Shown here: in pieces, positions 12,006-18,870 of the stretch | How the letters are laid out: each line of letters starts with the position of its first letter | How positions within the stretch are numbered: position 1 is the first letter of the stretch | Assembly (NCBI GenBank): GCA_035514415.1 | Contig: DATKBC010000009.1 | Coordinates: 1-42,016 of the forward strand | DNA length: 42,016 bases | Origin: Pleomorphomonadaceae bacterium | GTDB lineage: Bacteria > Chloroflexota > Limnocylindria > QHBO01 | Reading direction: 5' to 3' | The notes under the pieces: model-generated | Database searches by the model: none | What the model was told of the DNA's origin: nothing | Seen by the model: only the letters and a program-made list of their open reading frames with translations | Translations under genes and position numbers: made by a program

Positions 12006-12443
12006 TCAGGGGGCTTTCGGCGGCGGGAGCAGACGCCCCAACGCGTCGACGCGCTCCTCGGCGGGCAATTCGTCTCGGTGGCGGCGTCCACGCGTGGGAC
12101 CAGGGATCGGCTGGGCCATGACCGAGTGGGGAACTTCGTCCAGGCGCTGCTGCACGCCGCGCAGACCCAGCTCGCGCAACGCCGGGGCAAAGCGCTCGGC
12201 GATGGCCCGCTCGCGGAGTAGCCCGAACAGCAGCGACGGGTGGGCCCGATTCAGGAGCTCCAGCGCGCGCGCCGTGTCGGTCGCGTTCACCTGGTTGCGC
12301 CCAAGCTGCGCTTCCAGGGTGTCGAGGGCCCGGTTCACCTCGCGGCGGGTGCCGCTGCTGAACGTGACCCGGTTGGCGACAATGCGGGTCTGACGGAGCG
12401 CGGCGCGTGCCGCCTTGTCGCGACTGCCGGGCGCGGAGGTCAT
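12006..12443 (-). CDS. hypothetical helical protein
   Basis: The C-terminal 145 aa of track ORF 12006-12650 have normal composition (NRALDTLEAQLGRNQVNATDTARALELLNRAHPSLLFGLLRERAI), whereas the upstream part is Arg/Ser/Gly junk. Start taken as the ATG at 12443 (or the ATG at 12455). Confidence 0.4.
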   Translation of the reverse strand: MTSAPGSRDKAARAALRQTRIVANRVTFSSGTRREVNRALDTLEAQLGRNQVNATDTARALELLNRAHPSLLFGLLRERAIAERFAPALRELGLRGVQQRLDEVPHSVMAQPIPGPTRGRRHRDELPAEERVDALGRLLPPPKAP

Positions 12444-13131
12444 GGTGATTGGCATCTTAGGGGCTGAGGGGGACTGGCAGGCAGTCATCGCCTCGGCCCT
12501 GGCGATCGTCCCGCGCCCGATCGCGGTGGACCCGCGGCTGGCGCCCCGTCGGGTCGTGCCCGATCCGGCCGACCCCGCCCTGGACGACCCGCGGCGCTGG
12601 GACCGCAGCCGCTTCCCGACCGCCCGCCAGGCGGCGACCCTGCTGCTCATCTACCCCCACCACGGGGAGCTGCTCATCCCGCTCACCGTCCGGCACGACG
12701 GGCTCCCCGATCACCCGGGCGAGATCAGCCTGCCCGGCGGGGCCGTCGATCCAGGCGACGCGTCGCTGGAGGCCACGGCCCTGCGCGAGGCGGCCGAAGA
12801 AGTCGGCCTGGATCCCGGTCCGGTGCGCGTGGTCGGTCGCCTCGACCCGGTCTGGATCCCGATCTCGAACTTCGAGCTGACCCCGGTGGTGGCCGTGACC
12901 AGCACCCGCCCCAATCTGACCCCGCGCGAGGCGGAAGTCTCCGCACTGATCGAATTCCCGGTTCGACTCCTGATCGAGGGCGCCGTCAACCTGGAGGAGA
13001 TCAGCGTGCCAGGCGCCGTGATCCAGACCGGCGTGTACCGATGGGAGGGCCACCGGGTGTGGGGCGCCACCGCCCGCACCTTGTCCATGCTGGGAGCGGT
13101 GCTGGGCACTCGTTCGGCCCCTTCCCCGTAG
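12442..13131 (+). CDS. NUDIX hydrolase, CoA pyrophosphatase type
   Basis: Nudix box GGAVDPGDASLEATALREAAEEVGL preceded by LLIPLTVRHDGLPDHPGEISLPGG, the NudL/CoA-pyrophosphatase upstream motif. Start is ambiguous: TTG at 12415 or ATG at 12442. Confidence 0.8.
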   Translation: MVIGILGAEGDWQAVIASALAIVPRPIAVDPRLAPRRVVPDPADPALDDPRRWDRSRFPTARQAATLLLIYPHHGELLIPLTVRHDGLPDHPGEISLPGGAVDPGDASLEATALREAAEEVGLDPGPVRVVGRLDPVWIPISNFELTPVVAVTSTRPNLTPREAEVSALIEFPVRLLIEGAVNLEEISVPGAVIQTGVYRWEGHRVWGATARTLSMLGAVLGTRSAPSP

Positions 13132-13137
13132 CGCGGG

Positions 13138-13776
13138 CTATTCCGGAGGCGCCTCGTCGGCGAGGTACCAGATCACGGGGTCCGGACAAGGGAGCGTGGG
13201 GCTGTGGATGCACCGGCCTGCAACATCTCCCGGCTCGCGATCCTCGCGCAATCGCATTCGCCCCTCGGCGTCCCATTCGATCAGCATCGGCATGGCGCTG
13301 AACTCGCCGAAGGCGAATCGCGCGTCCTGGAAAACCATGATGACCTCGAATTCGATCCTGAAGTCGGAGCCCACGCGGCCGTTGAGGTTGGTGAGGCTCG
13401 CCTCAGGCTCTATGTCCTCCACGAACGCACCACCCAGGACCGATCCGAACACACAATCACCGATCTGGTTCAGCCAGGCCTGCTCGAATCGATTGGCCAG
13501 CTCGCCATCACCCACCCACACACCGGTCAGGTCGACCCGTTCTCCGGTGGGACTGCGCAGGTCGATCGTCTCGCAGCCGGGCGGCAGTCCAAGCGCTGCA
13601 TCCGACGATGCAAGAGGTCCCGCATCGGTCGGGCTGGAATCCGGAGCTGCCGGGGACGACGCGCAAGCCGAGAGCACTGCCATGGCGGCGGCCACGAGCA
13701 GACATCTCGGCATCGCGTTCACGGCGGCTACAACCAATCTCCGTGGCATCAACCTCAGCCTGCCCCTCGACGGCAT
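13138..13776 (-). CDS. lipoprotein, uncharacterised four-Cys family (paralog A)
   Basis: Only the C-terminal part of track ORF 13138-14343 is credible. Signal and lipobox are RRLVVAAVNAMPRCLLVAAAMAVLSAC. Candidate ATG starts at 13776, 13749 and 13713. Conserved blocks are shared with 15376-15960 and 17199-17828. Confidence 0.65.
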   Translation of the reverse strand: MPSRGRLRLMPRRLVVAAVNAMPRCLLVAAAMAVLSACASSPAAPDSSPTDAGPLASSDAALGLPPGCETIDLRSPTGERVDLTGVWVGDGELANRFEQAWLNQIGDCVFGSVLGGAFVEDIEPEASLTNLNGRVGSDFRIEFEVIMVFQDARFAFGEFSAMPMLIEWDAEGRMRLREDREPGDVAGRCIHSPTLPCPDPVIWYLADEAPPE

Positions 13777-14594
13777 CAGCGGCGGGAGTTCACGTGAGTC
13801 TTCGCCGCGGCCAGCAGGCGCAGCAGCTCCCCGTGGTGCGGCTCCGGAGCGGCCACCACGTTCAGGGTCGGTCCCAGTCGGTCCGGGTCCCACCACGGCC
13901 CGCCAGCCAGGTTGGTCACCACCGCCCCGCCGCGCTCGGCGATGAGCCCGGCCGCGGCCACGTCCCAGCGCGACAGGCCCCCGTTCTGGACGAACGCATC
14001 GAAGCGCCCGGCGCCCACCGATGCCAGCGACAGCGCCGCGCTCCCCATCCGACGGTGAATCCGGATTACCGGCGCGATCCGTCGCTCGCGAGCTAGACCG
14101 CCCCGCCCCAGGATCGCCAGGCTCACGACGCAGTCCCCCAGCGCGTCCTTGGTCGACGCCCGCGCCAGGCTGCCGTTCAGGCGGGCGGCGCTGCGCGCGG
14201 TGGCGGTGTACAGGTCGCCGCGCAGCGGGTCGAACACGACCCCGAGCACCGGCACTCCGTCCTCGACCAGCGCCGCCGAGACGCAGAAATACGGGATCCC
14301 GTTGGCGTAGTTGACCGTGCCATCCAGCGGGTCGATGGCCCACCAGCGCCGCGCGCCATCGGGTCCGCCCACGCGGTCCGCACCGGCTTCCTCGGCCAGG
14401 ATCCCATCCTCTGGGAAGCGGCGCCGGATCCGCTTCGCGATCAGGGCCTCGGACCGAAAGTCCACCTCGGTCACGACGTCGCGGCGGCTCTTGTGGCGCA
14501 CCCGGCCCACCCGCCCGTACCGCTCCAGCACGAGCGTCCCGGCGCTGCGGACCAGCCGAACCGCGAACTCCAGCTCATCGGCGTACCGGTTCAC
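13776..14594 (-). CDS. inositol monophosphatase family protein
   Basis: Blocks VVTEVDFRSE, WWAIDPLDGTVNYANG, WDVAAAGLIAERGGAVV. GTG start at 14594. Confidence 0.85.
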   Translation of the reverse strand: MNRYADELEFAVRLVRSAGTLVLERYGRVGRVRHKSRRDVVTEVDFRSEALIAKRIRRRFPEDGILAEEAGADRVGGPDGARRWWAIDPLDGTVNYANGIPYFCVSAALVEDGVPVLGVVFDPLRGDLYTATARSAARLNGSLARASTKDALGDCVVSLAILGRGGLARERRIAPVIRIHRRMGSAALSLASVGAGRFDAFVQNGGLSRWDVAAAGLIAERGGAVVTNLAGGPWWDPDRLGPTLNVVAAPEPHHGELLRLLAAAKTHVNSRR

Positions 14595-14636
14595 CCCGGC
14601 ATGCTAGCCGAGGCGCCGACCGGCTAGGCTACGCTC

Positions 14637-15365
14637 ATGCCGCAGCTCCACCTTCACGCCGAGCCGGGCGACTACGCCCCGCTGGTCCTGCTGCCCGGCG
14701 ATCCGAATCGGGCCACGACCATCGCCTCCCGCTTCGACGGCGGCCTGGAGGGCGCTCGACTGGTCAACCAGAACCGCCTGCTGCTGGGCTACACGGGCAC
14801 CGTGAGCGGGCGCCCGGTGAGCGTCCAGTCGAGCGGTATCGGCACGCCGTCGTTCTCGATCGTGGTCGAGGAGCTGCTGCGCCTGGGAGCCCGGCAGCTG
14901 GTCCGGGTGGGGACCTGCGGCGGCATCGGTCCGGGCGTCAAAACCGGCGACCTGGTCATCGCCACCGCGGCCTGCCCGGTGGACGGTGCGACCCGCACCT
15001 ACCTCCACGGGGAGCCGTACGCGCCGGCGGCCGACTTTCGGCTGACCCACGCGCTGGTGCACGCCGCCGAGACGTTGGGGATTGCGGCCCACATCGGCCT
15101 GGTGGCATCGGTCGACGTGTTCTACAACCCGGATGACGACTATGCGCAGCGCTGGCGCGACCGCGGGGTGCTGGCCTTCGAGATGGAGGCCAGCGCGCTG
15201 TTCTTCCTGGCCGCCCGGTCCCATGTCCAGGCGGCGTGCGCGTTGGTCGTGAGCGACGTCCTGTCGGAGACCGATACCTCCGAGGAGACCTACGTCAGCA
15301 CCGAGCAGCTGGCCGCCGCGGTCGACCGCATGACCGACCTGGTGCTCGCCGCGGACTTCGCCTAG
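14637..15365 (+). CDS. purine/uridine nucleoside phosphorylase (NP-I family, DeoD-like)
   Basis: 242 aa. Blocks LLPGDPNRATTIA, GRPVSVQSSGIGTPSFSIVVEEL, VRVGTCGG, AFEMEASALF. Confidence 0.8.
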   Translation: MPQLHLHAEPGDYAPLVLLPGDPNRATTIASRFDGGLEGARLVNQNRLLLGYTGTVSGRPVSVQSSGIGTPSFSIVVEELLRLGARQLVRVGTCGGIGPGVKTGDLVIATAACPVDGATRTYLHGEPYAPAADFRLTHALVHAAETLGIAAHIGLVASVDVFYNPDDDYAQRWRDRGVLAFEMEASALFFLAARSHVQAACALVVSDVLSETDTSEETYVSTEQLAAAVDRMTDLVLAADFA

Positions 15366-15375
15366 GTGAGGGGAG

Positions 15376-15960
15376 TCAGCGGCTGGGTCTGAGGAGGAGC
15401 GGCGACGCGCAGAAGTTCGACGGATCCGGGCAGCGGGGGCCCTGAACGCCGGGAGTGCGGTCCTCACGGAGCGTGATATCGCCCGCCGAGTTGAACTCGA
15501 TGAGCAGTCGGACCTCGGCGAGGTATTGCGGGAGATGGAAGGTGGGGTGTGGACCGAGAAGGACGATCGTCCCATCGATCACGAAATTGTTGCCCACCCT
15601 GCCCTGAAGTACCTGCACGGACTCCCCGCGGGGCAGGAATTCGTCTCGGGTGTAGTCATCGTAAATGCCGGTGCCCCAGATGCAATCCCCGAGCGTCCGG
15701 ATCCACCATTTCGCTGGTAGACGGCCCTCGGTTCCATCCTGGATCCAGATCCCGTTGAGATCGACGGCGACCCCGGCGGGCGACCGCAGGTCGATCGGCT
15801 CGCAGCCGGAGGGCAGATTGCTAACCCCTGCTGCCTCGCTTTCGGTCGGAGACGCGGACGTCGGAGGCGCGGAACTGGGCGTACAGGCGGAGACCACCAA
15901 CGCGGCACTGATGAGTGCTCGACGCAGCCGCGGCGTTTGAGTGGCCATGCGATCGAGCAT
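15376..15960 (-). CDS. lipoprotein, uncharacterised four-Cys family (paralog B)
   Basis: Signal and lipobox RLRRALISAALVVSAC, followed by LPSGCEPIDLRSPAGVAVDLNGIW, LGDCIWG, LLIEFNSAGDITLREDRTPGVQGPRC...FC. Confidence 0.7.
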   Translation of the reverse strand: MLDRMATQTPRLRRALISAALVVSACTPSSAPPTSASPTESEAAGVSNLPSGCEPIDLRSPAGVAVDLNGIWIQDGTEGRLPAKWWIRTLGDCIWGTGIYDDYTRDEFLPRGESVQVLQGRVGNNFVIDGTIVLLGPHPTFHLPQYLAEVRLLIEFNSAGDITLREDRTPGVQGPRCPDPSNFCASPLLLRPSR

Positions 15961-16037
15961 AGGCCAGTCCCGATCGGTCGTGGAACGTCACTCGACTGAC
16001 GGCGTACCATCGACCCGCGCATGAGGCACTCGTACCG

Positions 16038-17165
16038 ATGACCACCACCCAGCCGGCCCCAGTCACCGAGGCCACCGACTTCCTCCCGCTGAAGGGCATT
16101 GACCACGTCGAGTTCTGGGTCGGCAACGCGAAGCAGGCCGCCCACTACTACCGGACCTTGTGGGGCTTCACCCCGGTCGCCTATGCGGGACTGGAGACGG
16201 GGGTCAGGGACCGGGCCAGCTACGTCCTGGTGCAGAACGACATTCGCTTCGTGTTCACGGCCCCCATCGGTCCCGACGGTGAGGTCGCCGAGCACGTCCG
16301 GAAGCACGGCGACGGGGTCAAGGACATCGCATTCGCCGTCGACGACGCGGAGTCTGCGTGGCGCGAGACGACCACTCGCGGGGCTCGCTCAGCGCAGCCT
16401 TTGACCGAGGCGACCGGCGACAAAGGTGTCCTCCGCACGTCGGCGATCCACACTTACGGGGAGGTGGTCCACACCTTCGTCGACCGCCGCGATTACGCGG
16501 GAACCTACGCCCCCGGCTATCACCGGATCAAGGCCCCCGGCGCGCCGGGAAAGGGCCAGACCTTGCTCAACATCGACCATTGCGTGGGCAACGTGGCGCT
16601 GGGCGACATGAACAAGTTCGTCGACTTCTACCGCGAGGTGCTGGGGTTCAGCCAGCTCGTCCACTTCGACGACAAGGTCATCCACACCGAGTACAGCGCC
16701 CTGATGAGCAAGGTCATGCAGAACGGGGACGGGCGGATCAAGTTCCCGATCAACGAGCCGGCCGCGGGCAAGCGCAAGAGCCAGATCCAGGAGTTCATCG
16801 ACTACTACCTCGACGCCGGCACCCAGCACATTGCGCTCCTTACGACCGACATCGCCAGCACGGTGCGTGTGTTGCGAGGCAGGGGGGTCGAGTTCCTGGG
16901 CCTGCCCCACGAGTACTTCGCGGCGCTGCCGGATCGGGTGGGCGACGTGGGCATACCGATCGACACGCTGGAGGAGCTGGGGATCGAGGCCGACCGCGAC
17001 GAGGAGGGCTACCTGCTCCAGATCTTCACCAAGCCGATCCAGGATCGGCCGACGTTCTTCTTCGAGATCATCGAGCGCCACGGCTCGCGCGGGTTCGGGC
17101 TGGGCAACTTCAAGGCCCTGTTCGAGGCCATCGAGCTGGAGCAGGAGAAGCGCGGCAACCTCTAG
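16038..17165 (+). CDS. hppD: 4-hydroxyphenylpyruvate dioxygenase
   Basis: 375 aa. Blocks IDHVEFWVGNAKQAAHYY, IDHCVGNV, QHIALLTTDI, YLLQIFTKP, FFEIIERHGSRGFGLGNFKALFEAIELEQEKRGNL. Confidence 0.92.
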   Translation: MTTTQPAPVTEATDFLPLKGIDHVEFWVGNAKQAAHYYRTLWGFTPVAYAGLETGVRDRASYVLVQNDIRFVFTAPIGPDGEVAEHVRKHGDGVKDIAFAVDDAESAWRETTTRGARSAQPLTEATGDKGVLRTSAIHTYGEVVHTFVDRRDYAGTYAPGYHRIKAPGAPGKGQTLLNIDHCVGNVALGDMNKFVDFYREVLGFSQLVHFDDKVIHTEYSALMSKVMQNGDGRIKFPINEPAAGKRKSQIQEFIDYYLDAGTQHIALLTTDIASTVRVLRGRGVEFLGLPHEYFAALPDRVGDVGIPIDTLEELGIEADRDEEGYLLQIFTKPIQDRPTFFFEIIERHGSRGFGLGNFKALFEAIELEQEKRGNL

Positions 17166-17198
17166 CTCCATCGGCGCGCTGGTGGCGCCCGTTCCCGA

Positions 17199-17828
17199 CT
17201 AGGTCGGCGACGGGGCGGGGGCGGGAAGGTCGTCCACGCGATACAGAATCACCGGGATCGGACAGAAGAGCTCTCCTCCGGGAACGGAATAGCATCGAGG
17301 CCCCACGCCCGGGATGCGATCTTCGCGCAGCAGGATCCGGCCGTCTTTGTCGAACTCAATGAGCAGCCTGACCTGGACGAACACGGCCGGCGGCAGGGGG
17401 GATCCGAACCGTATCGAGACCAACTCGCCTTCAATCAGGAAATCGGTGGTGACCTGCCCGCGCAAGGTGCCGAGGTTGCCGCCCGGTAGCTCAAAGTCTC
17501 CGACGTAGTTCGGGTCGGATCGGAACTCCTCGTCCATGATGGCGGCCCACACGCAATCGCCGACCTGACGGATAAAGGTGGTCTCGGTCGGGCTCTGGAA
17601 AAAGCCCGCCGACTGGCGACCGGTCCAGGCGCCGGTGAGGTCTATGGGCTGACCGTCCGGGCCTCGCAGATTGATCGGCTCACACCCCGGCGGGAGATCG
17701 CCGCTGATTGGCCGGGTTGAGGTCGGCGACGTGCTTGGGGATGGCGAGCCGACGGGCTCTCCGACGCACCCGGCGAGAACTATGGTCGCCAGAACGGCGG
17801 CGAGAAGCCCACGCGGCCGTGTGAGCAT
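17199..17828 (-). CDS. lipoprotein, uncharacterised four-Cys family (paralog C)
   Basis: The ATG at 17828 is preceded by GGGAGGGAGGA. Signal and lipobox MLTRPRGLLAAVLATIVLAGC, followed by LPPGCEPINLRGPDGQPIDLTGAW, VGDCVWA, LLIEFDKDGRILLREDRIPGVGPRC...FC. The upstream part of track ORF 17199-18053 is discarded. Confidence 0.7.
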   Translation of the reverse strand: MLTRPRGLLAAVLATIVLAGCVGEPVGSPSPSTSPTSTRPISGDLPPGCEPINLRGPDGQPIDLTGAWTGRQSAGFFQSPTETTFIRQVGDCVWAAIMDEEFRSDPNYVGDFELPGGNLGTLRGQVTTDFLIEGELVSIRFGSPLPPAVFVQVRLLIEFDKDGRILLREDRIPGVGPRCYSVPGGELFCPIPVILYRVDDLPAPAPSPT

Positions 17829-17901
17829 CGGTGGAAGCGTCCTCCCTCCCCGCGGTGGGTGAGAATGGGGCCCAGCATACGCGCGGGGTTTCCGCTGATC
17901 C

Positions 17902-18870
17902 ATGCCTGACACCCAGACCGCACTTGTCACCCTGGAGCGCATTCGGTTTGCCGCCCAGCAGATCCGGGGCGTGGCGGTCCGCACCCCGTTGCTGCCCTGG
18001 GAGGACGGCGTGTGGCTCAAGCCGGAGAGCCTGCAACCGGTGGGCGCATTCAAGATGCGCGGCGCCTACTTCCGCCTTTCCACGCTGACCGATGATGAGC
18101 GCTCCGCCGGCGTGATCACGTACTCCTCGGGCAACCATGCGCAGGCGGTGGCGCGCGCGGCGCGGCTGCTGGGCATCCACGCCGTGATCGTCATGCCCGA
18201 CGATGCGCCGGCTCTCAAAGTCGATCGGGTGCGTGCCGACGGGGCAGAGCTCATCCTGGCCGCTCCGGGAAACGACGCTCGACGAGCACTGGCCGAGAAC
18301 CTGGCGGCGGAGCGCGGCCTGACCCTGGTCCCGCCATATGACGACCCCGAGATCATCGCCGGCCAGGGAACCTGCGGGCTGGAGATCGTCGAGGACCTGC
18401 CCGACGTCGGCGAGGTGCTGGTCCCGGTCAGCGGCGGAGGCCTCATCAGCGGCATCGCGGCAGCGGTCAAGGCGCTGGCACCCATGGCCCGGATCGTCGG
18501 CGTCGAGCCCGAAGATGCCGCCGATGCACGCGAGTCCCTGGCCGCGCGCGAGCTCCGCGCCTGGCCGACCGAGCGCACGCACGAGACGATTGCGGATGGC
18601 CTGCGCGTGAACCGGCTCGGGAACCTGCCGTGGGCCCACATCCAGGCCCTCGTCGACGATATCGTCACCGTCTCGGACGACGACATGCGCGAGGCCATGC
18701 GTCAGCTGGCCCTCCGGGCTCGACTGGTGGTGGAGCCGTCGGGCGCGGCCAGCATGGCCGCCCACCTGACCAGCGCGGCGGGGCCGGTCCATGCACCGAG
18801 GGTCATCGTGCTCAGTGGCGGCAACGTCGATCCCGAGCAATACCGGTCCATCCTGGCCGGAGGCCAGTAG
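17902..18870 (+). CDS. PLP-dependent threonine/serine dehydratase
   Basis: PLP lysine motif PVGAFKMRGA, then YSSGNHAQAVA and the glycine loop PVSGGGLISG. 322 aa with no ACT regulatory domain, so the short catabolic type. Confidence 0.85.
   Translation: MPDTQTALVTLERIRFAAQQIRGVAVRTPLLPWEDGVWLKPESLQPVGAFKMRGAYFRLSTLTDDERSAGVITYSSGNHAQAVARAARLLGIHAVIVMPDDAPALKVDRVRADGAELILAAPGNDARRALAENLAAERGLTLVPPYDDPEIIAGQGTCGLEIVEDLPDVGEVLVPVSGGGLISGIAAAVKALAPMARIVGVEPEDAADARESLAARELRAWPTERTHETIADGLRVNRLGNLPWAHIQALVDDIVTVSDDDMREAMRQLALRARLVVEPSGAASMAAHLTSAAGPVHAPRVIVLSGGNVDPEQYRSILAGGQ

Follow-up and report, generated by a model that had tools for sequence, protein, structure and literature searches.

Among the known bacterial calycin-fold lipoproteins, YxeF of Bacillus subtilis (PF11631) is a 'slim' calycin, a secreted lipoprotein of a monoderm with a narrow taxonomic range (PMC3367933). 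Its up-and-down barrel has eight strands, the first of which (strand A) bears Gly-x-Trp, and the long C-terminal lipocalin helix is missing; the calycin signature itself consists of Gly-X-Trp on strand A together with an Arg on strand H (PMC3367933). TP0751 of Treponema pallidum is composed of a lipoprotein anchor, an intrinsically disordered region, and a lipocalin-fold domain (PMC7521688). Blc of Escherichia coli and the kernel lipocalins (RBP, ApoD, bilin-binding protein) are lipid-anchored or extracellular and have one conserved end and one loop-variable end, and many of them carry disulfides. Avidin and streptavidin are eight-stranded barrels with L-T-G-x-W in the first strand. In the present study we analyzed three related genes, here called A, B, and C, in a stretch of 42,016 nucleotides (nt) of Limnocylindria DNA (contig DATKBC010000009.1 of assembly GCA_035514415.1, positions 1 to 42,016; hereafter the window). 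Candidatus Limnocylindria is an abundant uncultured lineage of soil and freshwater Chloroflexota, and to our knowledge essentially nothing is known of its envelope biology. The products of the three genes form a new sequence family among the calycin-fold lipoproteins represented by YxeF, Blc, and TP0751, and are nothing categorically new. The combined reading that we favor, and regard as moderately probable, is that they are lipid-anchored extracytoplasmic calycin-like binding proteins that are diversifying their specificity.

An earlier note on this DNA described three paralogous lipoprotein genes on the minus strand, and the three open reading frames (ORFs) were confirmed at the coordinates that it gave:

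13138..13776, minus strand: paralog A, 212 amino acids (aa) as given, with an LSAC lipobox, a Pro/Ser/Ala linker, a predicted calycin-like barrel, and four Cys
15376..15960, minus strand: paralog B, 194 aa, with a VSAC lipobox, a Pro/Ser/Thr linker, a predicted calycin-like barrel, and four Cys
17199..17828, minus strand: paralog C, 209 aa, with an LAGC lipobox, a Pro/Ser/Thr linker, a predicted calycin-like barrel, and four Cys

The three proteins are 37-43% identical in pairs and share 52 invariant columns when aligned with one another, a similarity much greater than chance would produce, and this alignment bore out both the paralogy and every conserved block listed in the note. They have the same layout: an Arg-containing n-region, a hydrophobic stretch, and a lipobox are followed by a Pro/Ser/Thr/Ala-rich linker of ~20-30 residues and a domain of ~145 residues with four Cys. 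The lipoboxes were also as described, each preceded by the Arg-containing n-region.

The family is real, narrow, and uncharacterised, and was found only in Candidatus Limnocylindria. When A, B, and C were compared with Pfam-A, NCBIfam, PADLOC, and PHROGs, no match exceeded the curated thresholds, and the signal peptide alone gave some sub-threshold noise. All 122 aligned members likewise gave no match in Pfam, and a profile search of the PDB sequences returned noise only. Thus, searches with hidden Markov models built from the three copies agree with the claim that the family was unrecognised, and the confident match to a characterised domain family that the note had held to be decisive against it did not turn up. 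A profile of the three retrieved 187 homologues from a collection of 5.8 billion proteins with E-values down to 1e-88. Those with a database name were all called 'hypothetical protein', and their organism labels were Chloroflexota or Candidatus Limnocylindria. When 1.84 billion cluster representatives were searched exhaustively with HMMER, 229 sequences passed E ≤ 0.001 and 43 of them also passed E ≤ 1e-30. Scanning 185,579 species genomes for a sequence pattern returned 13 loci, all of them in Limnocylindria or 'uncultured Chloroflexia' metagenome-assembled genomes (MAGs). Two kinds of longer match were set aside: the 3413-aa protein P0247 from the deep search is a cadherin-repeat protein with six matches to a short stretch and was judged spurious, and 'fusion' homologues of 266-370 aa contained no informative extra domain.

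The distribution within the class is uneven. In a sample of 150 other genomes from the class, the window's genus was the only source of full-length matches, which came from seven of its nine other genomes, each with 8-15 matches mostly within one region of ~15 kb; the rest of this sample gave weak N-terminal matches only. The window's own MAG (1.29 Mb, 57% complete) contains three copies only. It is unlikely that tandem copies were collapsed in its assembly, since the tandem copies of the relatives are only 55-75% identical.

We modeled full-length B and the mature domain of A (window 13141-13596) by AlphaFold2 (AF2) with the family alignment. Model B had a mean pLDDT (predicted local distance difference test) of 82 and a pTM (predicted TM-score) of 0.70, with values of 51-66 in the signal and linker and at least 90 in most of the domain, and the model of the mature A domain reached a pLDDT of 92.4 and a pTM of 0.86. 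Both models consist of eight β-strands and have no helix of four or more residues as assigned by DSSP. When they were compared with the PDB by Foldseek, the top matches of both were almost all calycins. The best match was 1lke (DigA16, an engineered bilin-binding-protein lipocalin; E 0.012), and further matches included nitrobindin, nitrophorin 2, RBP, ApoD, lipocalin HP1028, CRBP, and the nitrobindin-like domains of APCDD1, as well as many avidins with a probability of 0.9-1.0 and TM-scores of 0.53-0.58 on target length. The modeling and structure search proposed in the note therefore yielded a predicted eight-stranded barrel with weak calycin matches. Besides the four domain Cys, the alignment of 122 sequences has G70, W72, G91, F126, E166, and R168 (B numbering) as invariant residues. 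Gly70-x-Trp72 belongs to the first predicted strand, which spans residues 70-74, and the invariant R168 and the nearly invariant R165 (at least 90%) lie on or just after strand 7. From these models we infer that the domain is calycin-like by fold and not a demonstrated member of the lipocalin or avidin family; lipocalin models of Pfam gave no match in the 122 members at E ≤ 1, and no avidin match was found in the Pfam or PDB sequence searches. We consider it likely that the lipoprotein family is real and that its domain is a calycin-like barrel. Because no His is invariant, heme binding of the nitrobindin or nitrophorin kind was set aside.

The family differs from each of the described systems. 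It shares with YxeF the lipoprotein signal, the narrow taxonomic range, the Gly-x-Trp, and, as far as the models predict, the eight-stranded barrel and the absence of the long helix, but no sequence similarity is detectable, and YxeF has no disulfides, long Pro/Ser/Thr linker, conserved N-terminal extension, or REDR loop and has not expanded into arrays. The kernel lipocalins were among the best Foldseek matches (1lke, 1kt3, 2hzr, 1bbp), whereas the E-values were only 0.01-0.1 and our family has neither a Pfam lipocalin match nor the flanking C-terminal α-helix. The avidins, which are similar in size and also have L-T-G-x-W in the first strand, gave the highest target-normalised TM-scores, but the family has no Pfam avidin match and is predicted to be lipid-anchored. 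TP0751 is unrelated in sequence and, in contrast to A, B, and C, is encoded by a single-copy gene of a diderm pathogen and is discussed as an adhesin.

The four domain Cys, which the earlier note regarded as invariant in the three copies, are invariant in 122 of 122 aligned members. Its term 'four-cysteine family' holds for the genus-level subfamily but not for the wider relatives, which keep two Cys. A deeper clade in the genus and a sister family elsewhere retain the lipobox, the linker, Cys1, LTGxW, and Cys2 in GDC or GSC, and most of these two-Cys relatives lack both Cys3 and Cys4 as well as the LREDR loop. Because Cys3 and Cys4 have been lost jointly while Cys1 and Cys2 were kept, the comparison suggests that Cys1 pairs with Cys2, joining the N-terminal extension to the hairpin of strands 2 and 3, and that Cys3 pairs with Cys4, closing a loop of 6-9 residues within L7.

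A lipobox is recognisable in 109 of the 122 members, the other 13 being N-terminally truncated gene calls, and at least 90% of the aligned sequences have the lipobox Cys. We looked for the processing and envelope machinery in four genomes (G000, G012, G090, and G138), which comprise the window's own 57%-complete MAG and three relatives. Lgt (PF01790) and signal peptidase II LspA (PF01252) were detected over the cut-offs in all four, and Omp85/BamA was found in none of them. Since the genus genomes checked show no Omp85, the cell probably has a single membrane, and A, B, and C would therefore be located on the outer face of the cytoplasmic membrane. Export by the twin-arginine (Tat) pathway, to which the RR pairs in A and B might point, was set aside because RR is absent from the family consensus and from C.

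In an up-and-down barrel the odd-numbered loops lie at one end and the even-numbered loops at the other, and lipocalins have a conserved closed end and a variable open end that defines the ligand. We therefore compared the loops between the strand boundaries of model B. The mean column entropy of L1, L3, and L5 was 2.2-2.55 bits, and L1 and L3 hold most of the indels; in paralog C, L3 is longer, as is the C-terminal tail. In contrast, the entropy was 0.24 bits in L2 (the GDC hairpin), 1.03 bits in L4, and 0.83 bits in the N-terminal extension LPxGCExIDLRxPxG, all of which are without indels, and the long L7 is partly conserved (REDRxPG...RC...C). By topology and by analogy with lipocalins, we infer that the L1/L3/L5 end may be the open, ligand-defining end. 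The ratio of nonsynonymous to synonymous substitution rates (dN/dS) was estimated by pooling pairwise Nei-Gojobori values of within-clade pairs with dS of 0.02-0.8, which are not independent of one another. The pooled dN/dS was 0.81 in L1/L3/L5 as compared with 0.35 in the rest of the domain, where the loop partition comprises 34 codons of an imperfect alignment, and several of the closest pairs had a loop dN/dS above 1. These values are suggestive of relaxed or diversifying selection on the loops.

The three genes are interleaved with the following genes:

12415..13131, plus strand: NUDIX hydrolase gene (PF00293), outer boundary of slot A, in conserved synteny
13776..14594, minus strand: inositol-monophosphatase-family (IMPase) gene (PF00459), upstream of A on the same strand, bounding slot A
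14637..15365, plus strand: PNP/UDP-family nucleoside phosphorylase gene (PF01048), convergent with B, bounding slot B
16038..17165, plus strand: 4-hydroxyphenylpyruvate dioxygenase-like (HppD) gene (PF00903, PF14696), separating slots B and C
17902..18870, plus strand: pyridoxal-phosphate-dependent threonine dehydratase-like (PALP) gene (PF00291), bounding slot C

The placement by enzyme genes agreed with the earlier description: A lies downstream of the IMPase gene, B tail-to-tail with the PNP gene at a gap of 10 nt, and C tail-to-tail with the HppD gene at a gap of 33 nt. The HppD gene is divergent from B (78 nt) and convergent with C (33 nt), and the PALP gene is divergent from C (74 nt). 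The interleaving with housekeeping genes is real and is conserved across the genus; the order ABC-ATPase, NUDIX, [A], IMPase, PNP, [B], HppD, [C], PALP, and cyclase was seen in G012, G084, G090, G099, G114, G117, and G138 and on several other Limnocylindria MAG contigs, with one to four copies in each slot. In the long-contig MAG G084 (L017; G084:C5:90000-109000), the HppD, PALP, cyclase, PNP, and NUDIX genes and several of the lipoprotein copies are split into two frames. This looks like frameshift sequencing errors and not true pseudogenes.

A maximum-likelihood tree of 48 copies from eight genomes separated the copies by slot. All A-slot copies formed one clade (100/99), the core B-slot copies another (99/98) that included two dispersed copies of G117 outside the locus, and the core C-slot copies a third (88/80). 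A fourth, deeper clade (96/98) contained two-Cys-like copies beside the HppD gene or in slot C. The duplications are thus old, as had been proposed: from the slot-specific clades it follows that the triplication is older than the genus and that later tandem gains and losses occurred within the slots. Fragments of the neighboring genes are found between tandem copies, namely the IMPase 3' end (L022 1523-1630), the HppD 5' part (L016 10223-10604), and an HppD 3' fragment (L015 8692-8772), and these sequence remnants mark the units of segmental duplication.

The family evolves faster than its neighbors. The dN/dS of A, B, and C against their orthologues was 0.28-0.72, whereas that of the flanking genes was 0.07-0.21. 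In comparison with G012, A and B are 67-76% identical at a similar dS (dN/dS 0.37-0.50), whereas the flanking enzymes are 90-97% identical. Paralog C and its G012 copy have 90% aa identity. At the nucleotide level C (17210-17807) is 94.7% identical to this copy (L015 8842-9442) with a dS of 0.07, whereas the flanking genes are 80-90% identical with a dS of 0.41-0.46. The difference suggests a recent exchange or gene conversion of the C cassette between lineages. The G012 copy is preceded by the duplicated HppD 3' fragment mentioned above.

The main rival explanation is that A, B, and C are inhibitors or immunity proteins that neutralise secreted enzymes or toxins of competitors (lysozymes, peptidoglycan hydrolases, proteases), in the manner of MliC/PliC, the serralysin inhibitor Inh, staphostatins, or orphan immunity gene arrays. 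Copy-number changes by tandem duplication, fast protein evolution with a loop dN/dS near 1 and above 1 in several close pairs, the conserved charged surface motif REDR, and the predicted anchoring outside the membrane, where such attacks arrive, are all in accordance with it. However, neither the slots nor the dispersed copies have a toxin or hydrolase gene next to them, no Pfam match to MliC/PliC-type or related inhibitor families and no PADLOC match was obtained, and inhibitor folds are absent from the 50 best Foldseek matches of either model. We consider this explanation unlikely.

The loop and copy-number data also bear on the possibility that these are structural or adhesive envelope proteins, in which a linker-tethered barrel would contact the cell wall, the S-layer, or external surfaces without a ligand pocket. 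The layout is that of TP0751 (PMC7521688), for which such a role has been proposed, and the surface segments formed by the N-terminal extension and L7 are more conserved than the barrel strands. Such a role, however, would not predict one to four copies per slot or hypervariable loops, and the patchy presence of the family (seven of nine sampled genus genomes, sparse elsewhere in the class) would be unexpected. It is very unlikely that this explanation holds.

In the reading that we favor, in which A, B, and C are diversifying lipid-anchored binding proteins, the protein would be exported, would receive its lipid at the lipobox Cys through the action of Lgt and LspA, and would stay attached to the cytoplasmic membrane on its outer face, with the disordered Pro/Ser/Thr linker of ~25 residues joining the anchor to the folded domain. 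The domain would be an eight-stranded up-and-down β-barrel of the calycin type, as in lipocalin, avidin, and nitrobindin. Its conserved end would be composed of the LPxGCExIDLRxPxG extension, the L2 GDC hairpin, L4, and the Gly-x-Trp, and is probably stapled by Cys1-Cys2. The other end would carry the hypervariable L1, L3, and L5, adjoining the conserved charged L7 (LREDRxPG) that may be closed by Cys3-Cys4, and by analogy with lipocalins this variable end would be the binding site. Anchored at the cell surface, the proteins could thus bind small molecules, probably hydrophobic or amphipathic ones, in order to scavenge or sequester them. Specificity would vary among the paralogs, and likewise among the tandem copies of the relatives. 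The family changes as segments are duplicated in tandem or lost within its three fixed slots on the chromosome. For the specific proposal that A, B, and C bind small molecules, our confidence falls slightly short of even.

Several observations weigh against the binding-protein reading. No ligand-related partner gene is located near the slots, and none recurs beside the dispersed copies in a closed relative genome; these copies occupy unrelated contexts. The function is argued from the fold and the evolutionary pattern because of this lack of a recurring partner gene. Neither model had a Foldseek match at E < 0.001 (E ≥ 0.01 throughout), the TM-scores were 0.45-0.58, and the root-mean-square deviation was 6-9 Å, so that the matches support the fold class without supporting homology to calycins. 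The last strand ends with an Arg in ~60-90% of members but not in paralog A. As for the predicted disulfides, they are without an obvious catalyst, because VKOR, DsbA, and Thioredoxin_4 were not found in the four genomes and DsbB was found in only one of them. Despite the missing VKOR, DsbA, and Thioredoxin_4, exported proteins with invariant pairs of Cys are numerous in this genus. Finally, the GC content at third codon positions (GC3) of A, B, and C is 0.76-0.79 as compared with 0.84-0.93 in the neighboring genes, which could reflect low expression.

The last two of these points lead to further explanations. The four Cys could be free thiols that bind a metal such as copper or zinc or perform redox chemistry, and not disulfides. 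The strict invariance of all four and the scarcity of the usual disulfide-forming enzymes in most of the four genomes are compatible with free thiols. On the other hand, the Cys3-Cys4 spacing is 6, 7, and 9 residues in the paralogs, which a disulfide-closed loop would tolerate but a precise metal site would not; loss affects Cys3 and Cys4 together and spares Cys1 and Cys2, which fits two independent pairs; and there is no invariant His or Met. We regard free thiols as highly improbable. The lower GC3 could also be taken to mean that the ORFs are not expressed, being chance ORFs in GC-rich DNA or decaying pseudogenes. Yet there are hundreds of intact homologues with kept motifs, the dN/dS is below 1 outside the loops, the signal-linker-domain architecture is conserved, and AF2 gave confident models from the family alignment. 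In addition, the GC content at the three codon positions (~0.66/0.53/0.77) shows the normal coding periodicity for a genome of 70% GC. Conservation thus effectively excludes the possibility that the ORFs are unexpressed, and its likelihood appears almost negligible.

Returning to the binding proteins, a more far-reaching version of this reading is that the family is a natural 'anticalin-like' repertoire, in which a disulfide-stapled barrel presents three hypervariable loops under diversifying selection. A second part of this version is that new specificities arise by tandem duplication, loss, and inter-strain exchange in the three fixed slots. We consider this version, taken as a whole, quite unlikely. 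If it were true, small-genome soil Chloroflexota would possess tunable surface binders, for example for capturing scarce metabolites or for neutralising antimicrobial compounds or phage receptor-binding proteins; we know of no described counterpart of such a mechanism among bacterial lipoproteins. If the loops set ligand specificity, the family would offer compact, disulfide-stabilised natural scaffolds for envelope physiology and binder engineering. Should they prove to be ordinary lipid binders, several hundred 'hypothetical proteins' would still have gained a solid annotation. The family would merit an entry as a domain of unknown function, with a confidently predicted fold and a testable functional model of a conserved closed end and a variable binding end, and it is a clear case of birth-and-death evolution that stays within three fixed slots among housekeeping genes.

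The start of A at 13776, as given in the earlier note, requires correction. In-frame Met candidates are present at 13776, 13749, and 13713. The signal region of A (window 13713-13776) reads MPRRLVVAAVNA followed by MPRCLLVAAAMAVLSAC, which is an apparent tandem duplication of 12 residues; it can also be written as MPRRLVVAAVNA followed by MPRCLLVAAAMA. The orthologues of A have short single signals of 17-18 residues (MPRSLVVATMMAALTAC in G012, MTRRRLVAALIGVVVVGC in G090), and a metagenomic homologue 95% identical to A is called at 191 aa. The ATG at 13776 overlaps the IMPase stop codon, and G012 has no Met counterpart there. Since the orthologue signals are short and the window copy bears the duplicated stretch, Met22 (13713, 191 aa) is the likelier start. 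For paralog B, gene callers place the start at Met5 (15948, 190 aa).

Translational coupling of A to the IMPase gene through TGATG received no support from the orthologues; cotranscription of A with the IMPase gene is plausible. A promoter and terminator scan of 13000-18000 gave no match above chance. The convergent pairs PNP/B (15365-15376) and HppD/C (17165-17199) have no terminator-like hairpin between the genes. The transcripts of each pair probably overlap at their 3' ends.

The two-Cys sister family has at least 467 members, all of them uncharacterised, and its profile aligned to that of the window family with an hhalign probability of 98% and an E-value of 2e-13 over the N-terminal half. 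Its members in other Limnocylindria genera (for example L013 1447-2040) have the lipobox, the linker, Cys1, LTGxW, and IRQxGDCxW(W) but no LREDR...C...C loop, and there are usually one to three copies, distributed patchily across genera. At two of the loci examined, L013 720-2040 and L014 1453-2772, the sister lipoprotein gene lies beside a gene that resembles sigma factors of the extracytoplasmic function (ECF) type by sequence motifs only. Genes near these two loci encode proteins with a conserved 'DRLIHxFLxEG...' N-terminus, which could be anti-sigma factors, and the sister lipoprotein may have a regulatory link to the sigma-like gene.

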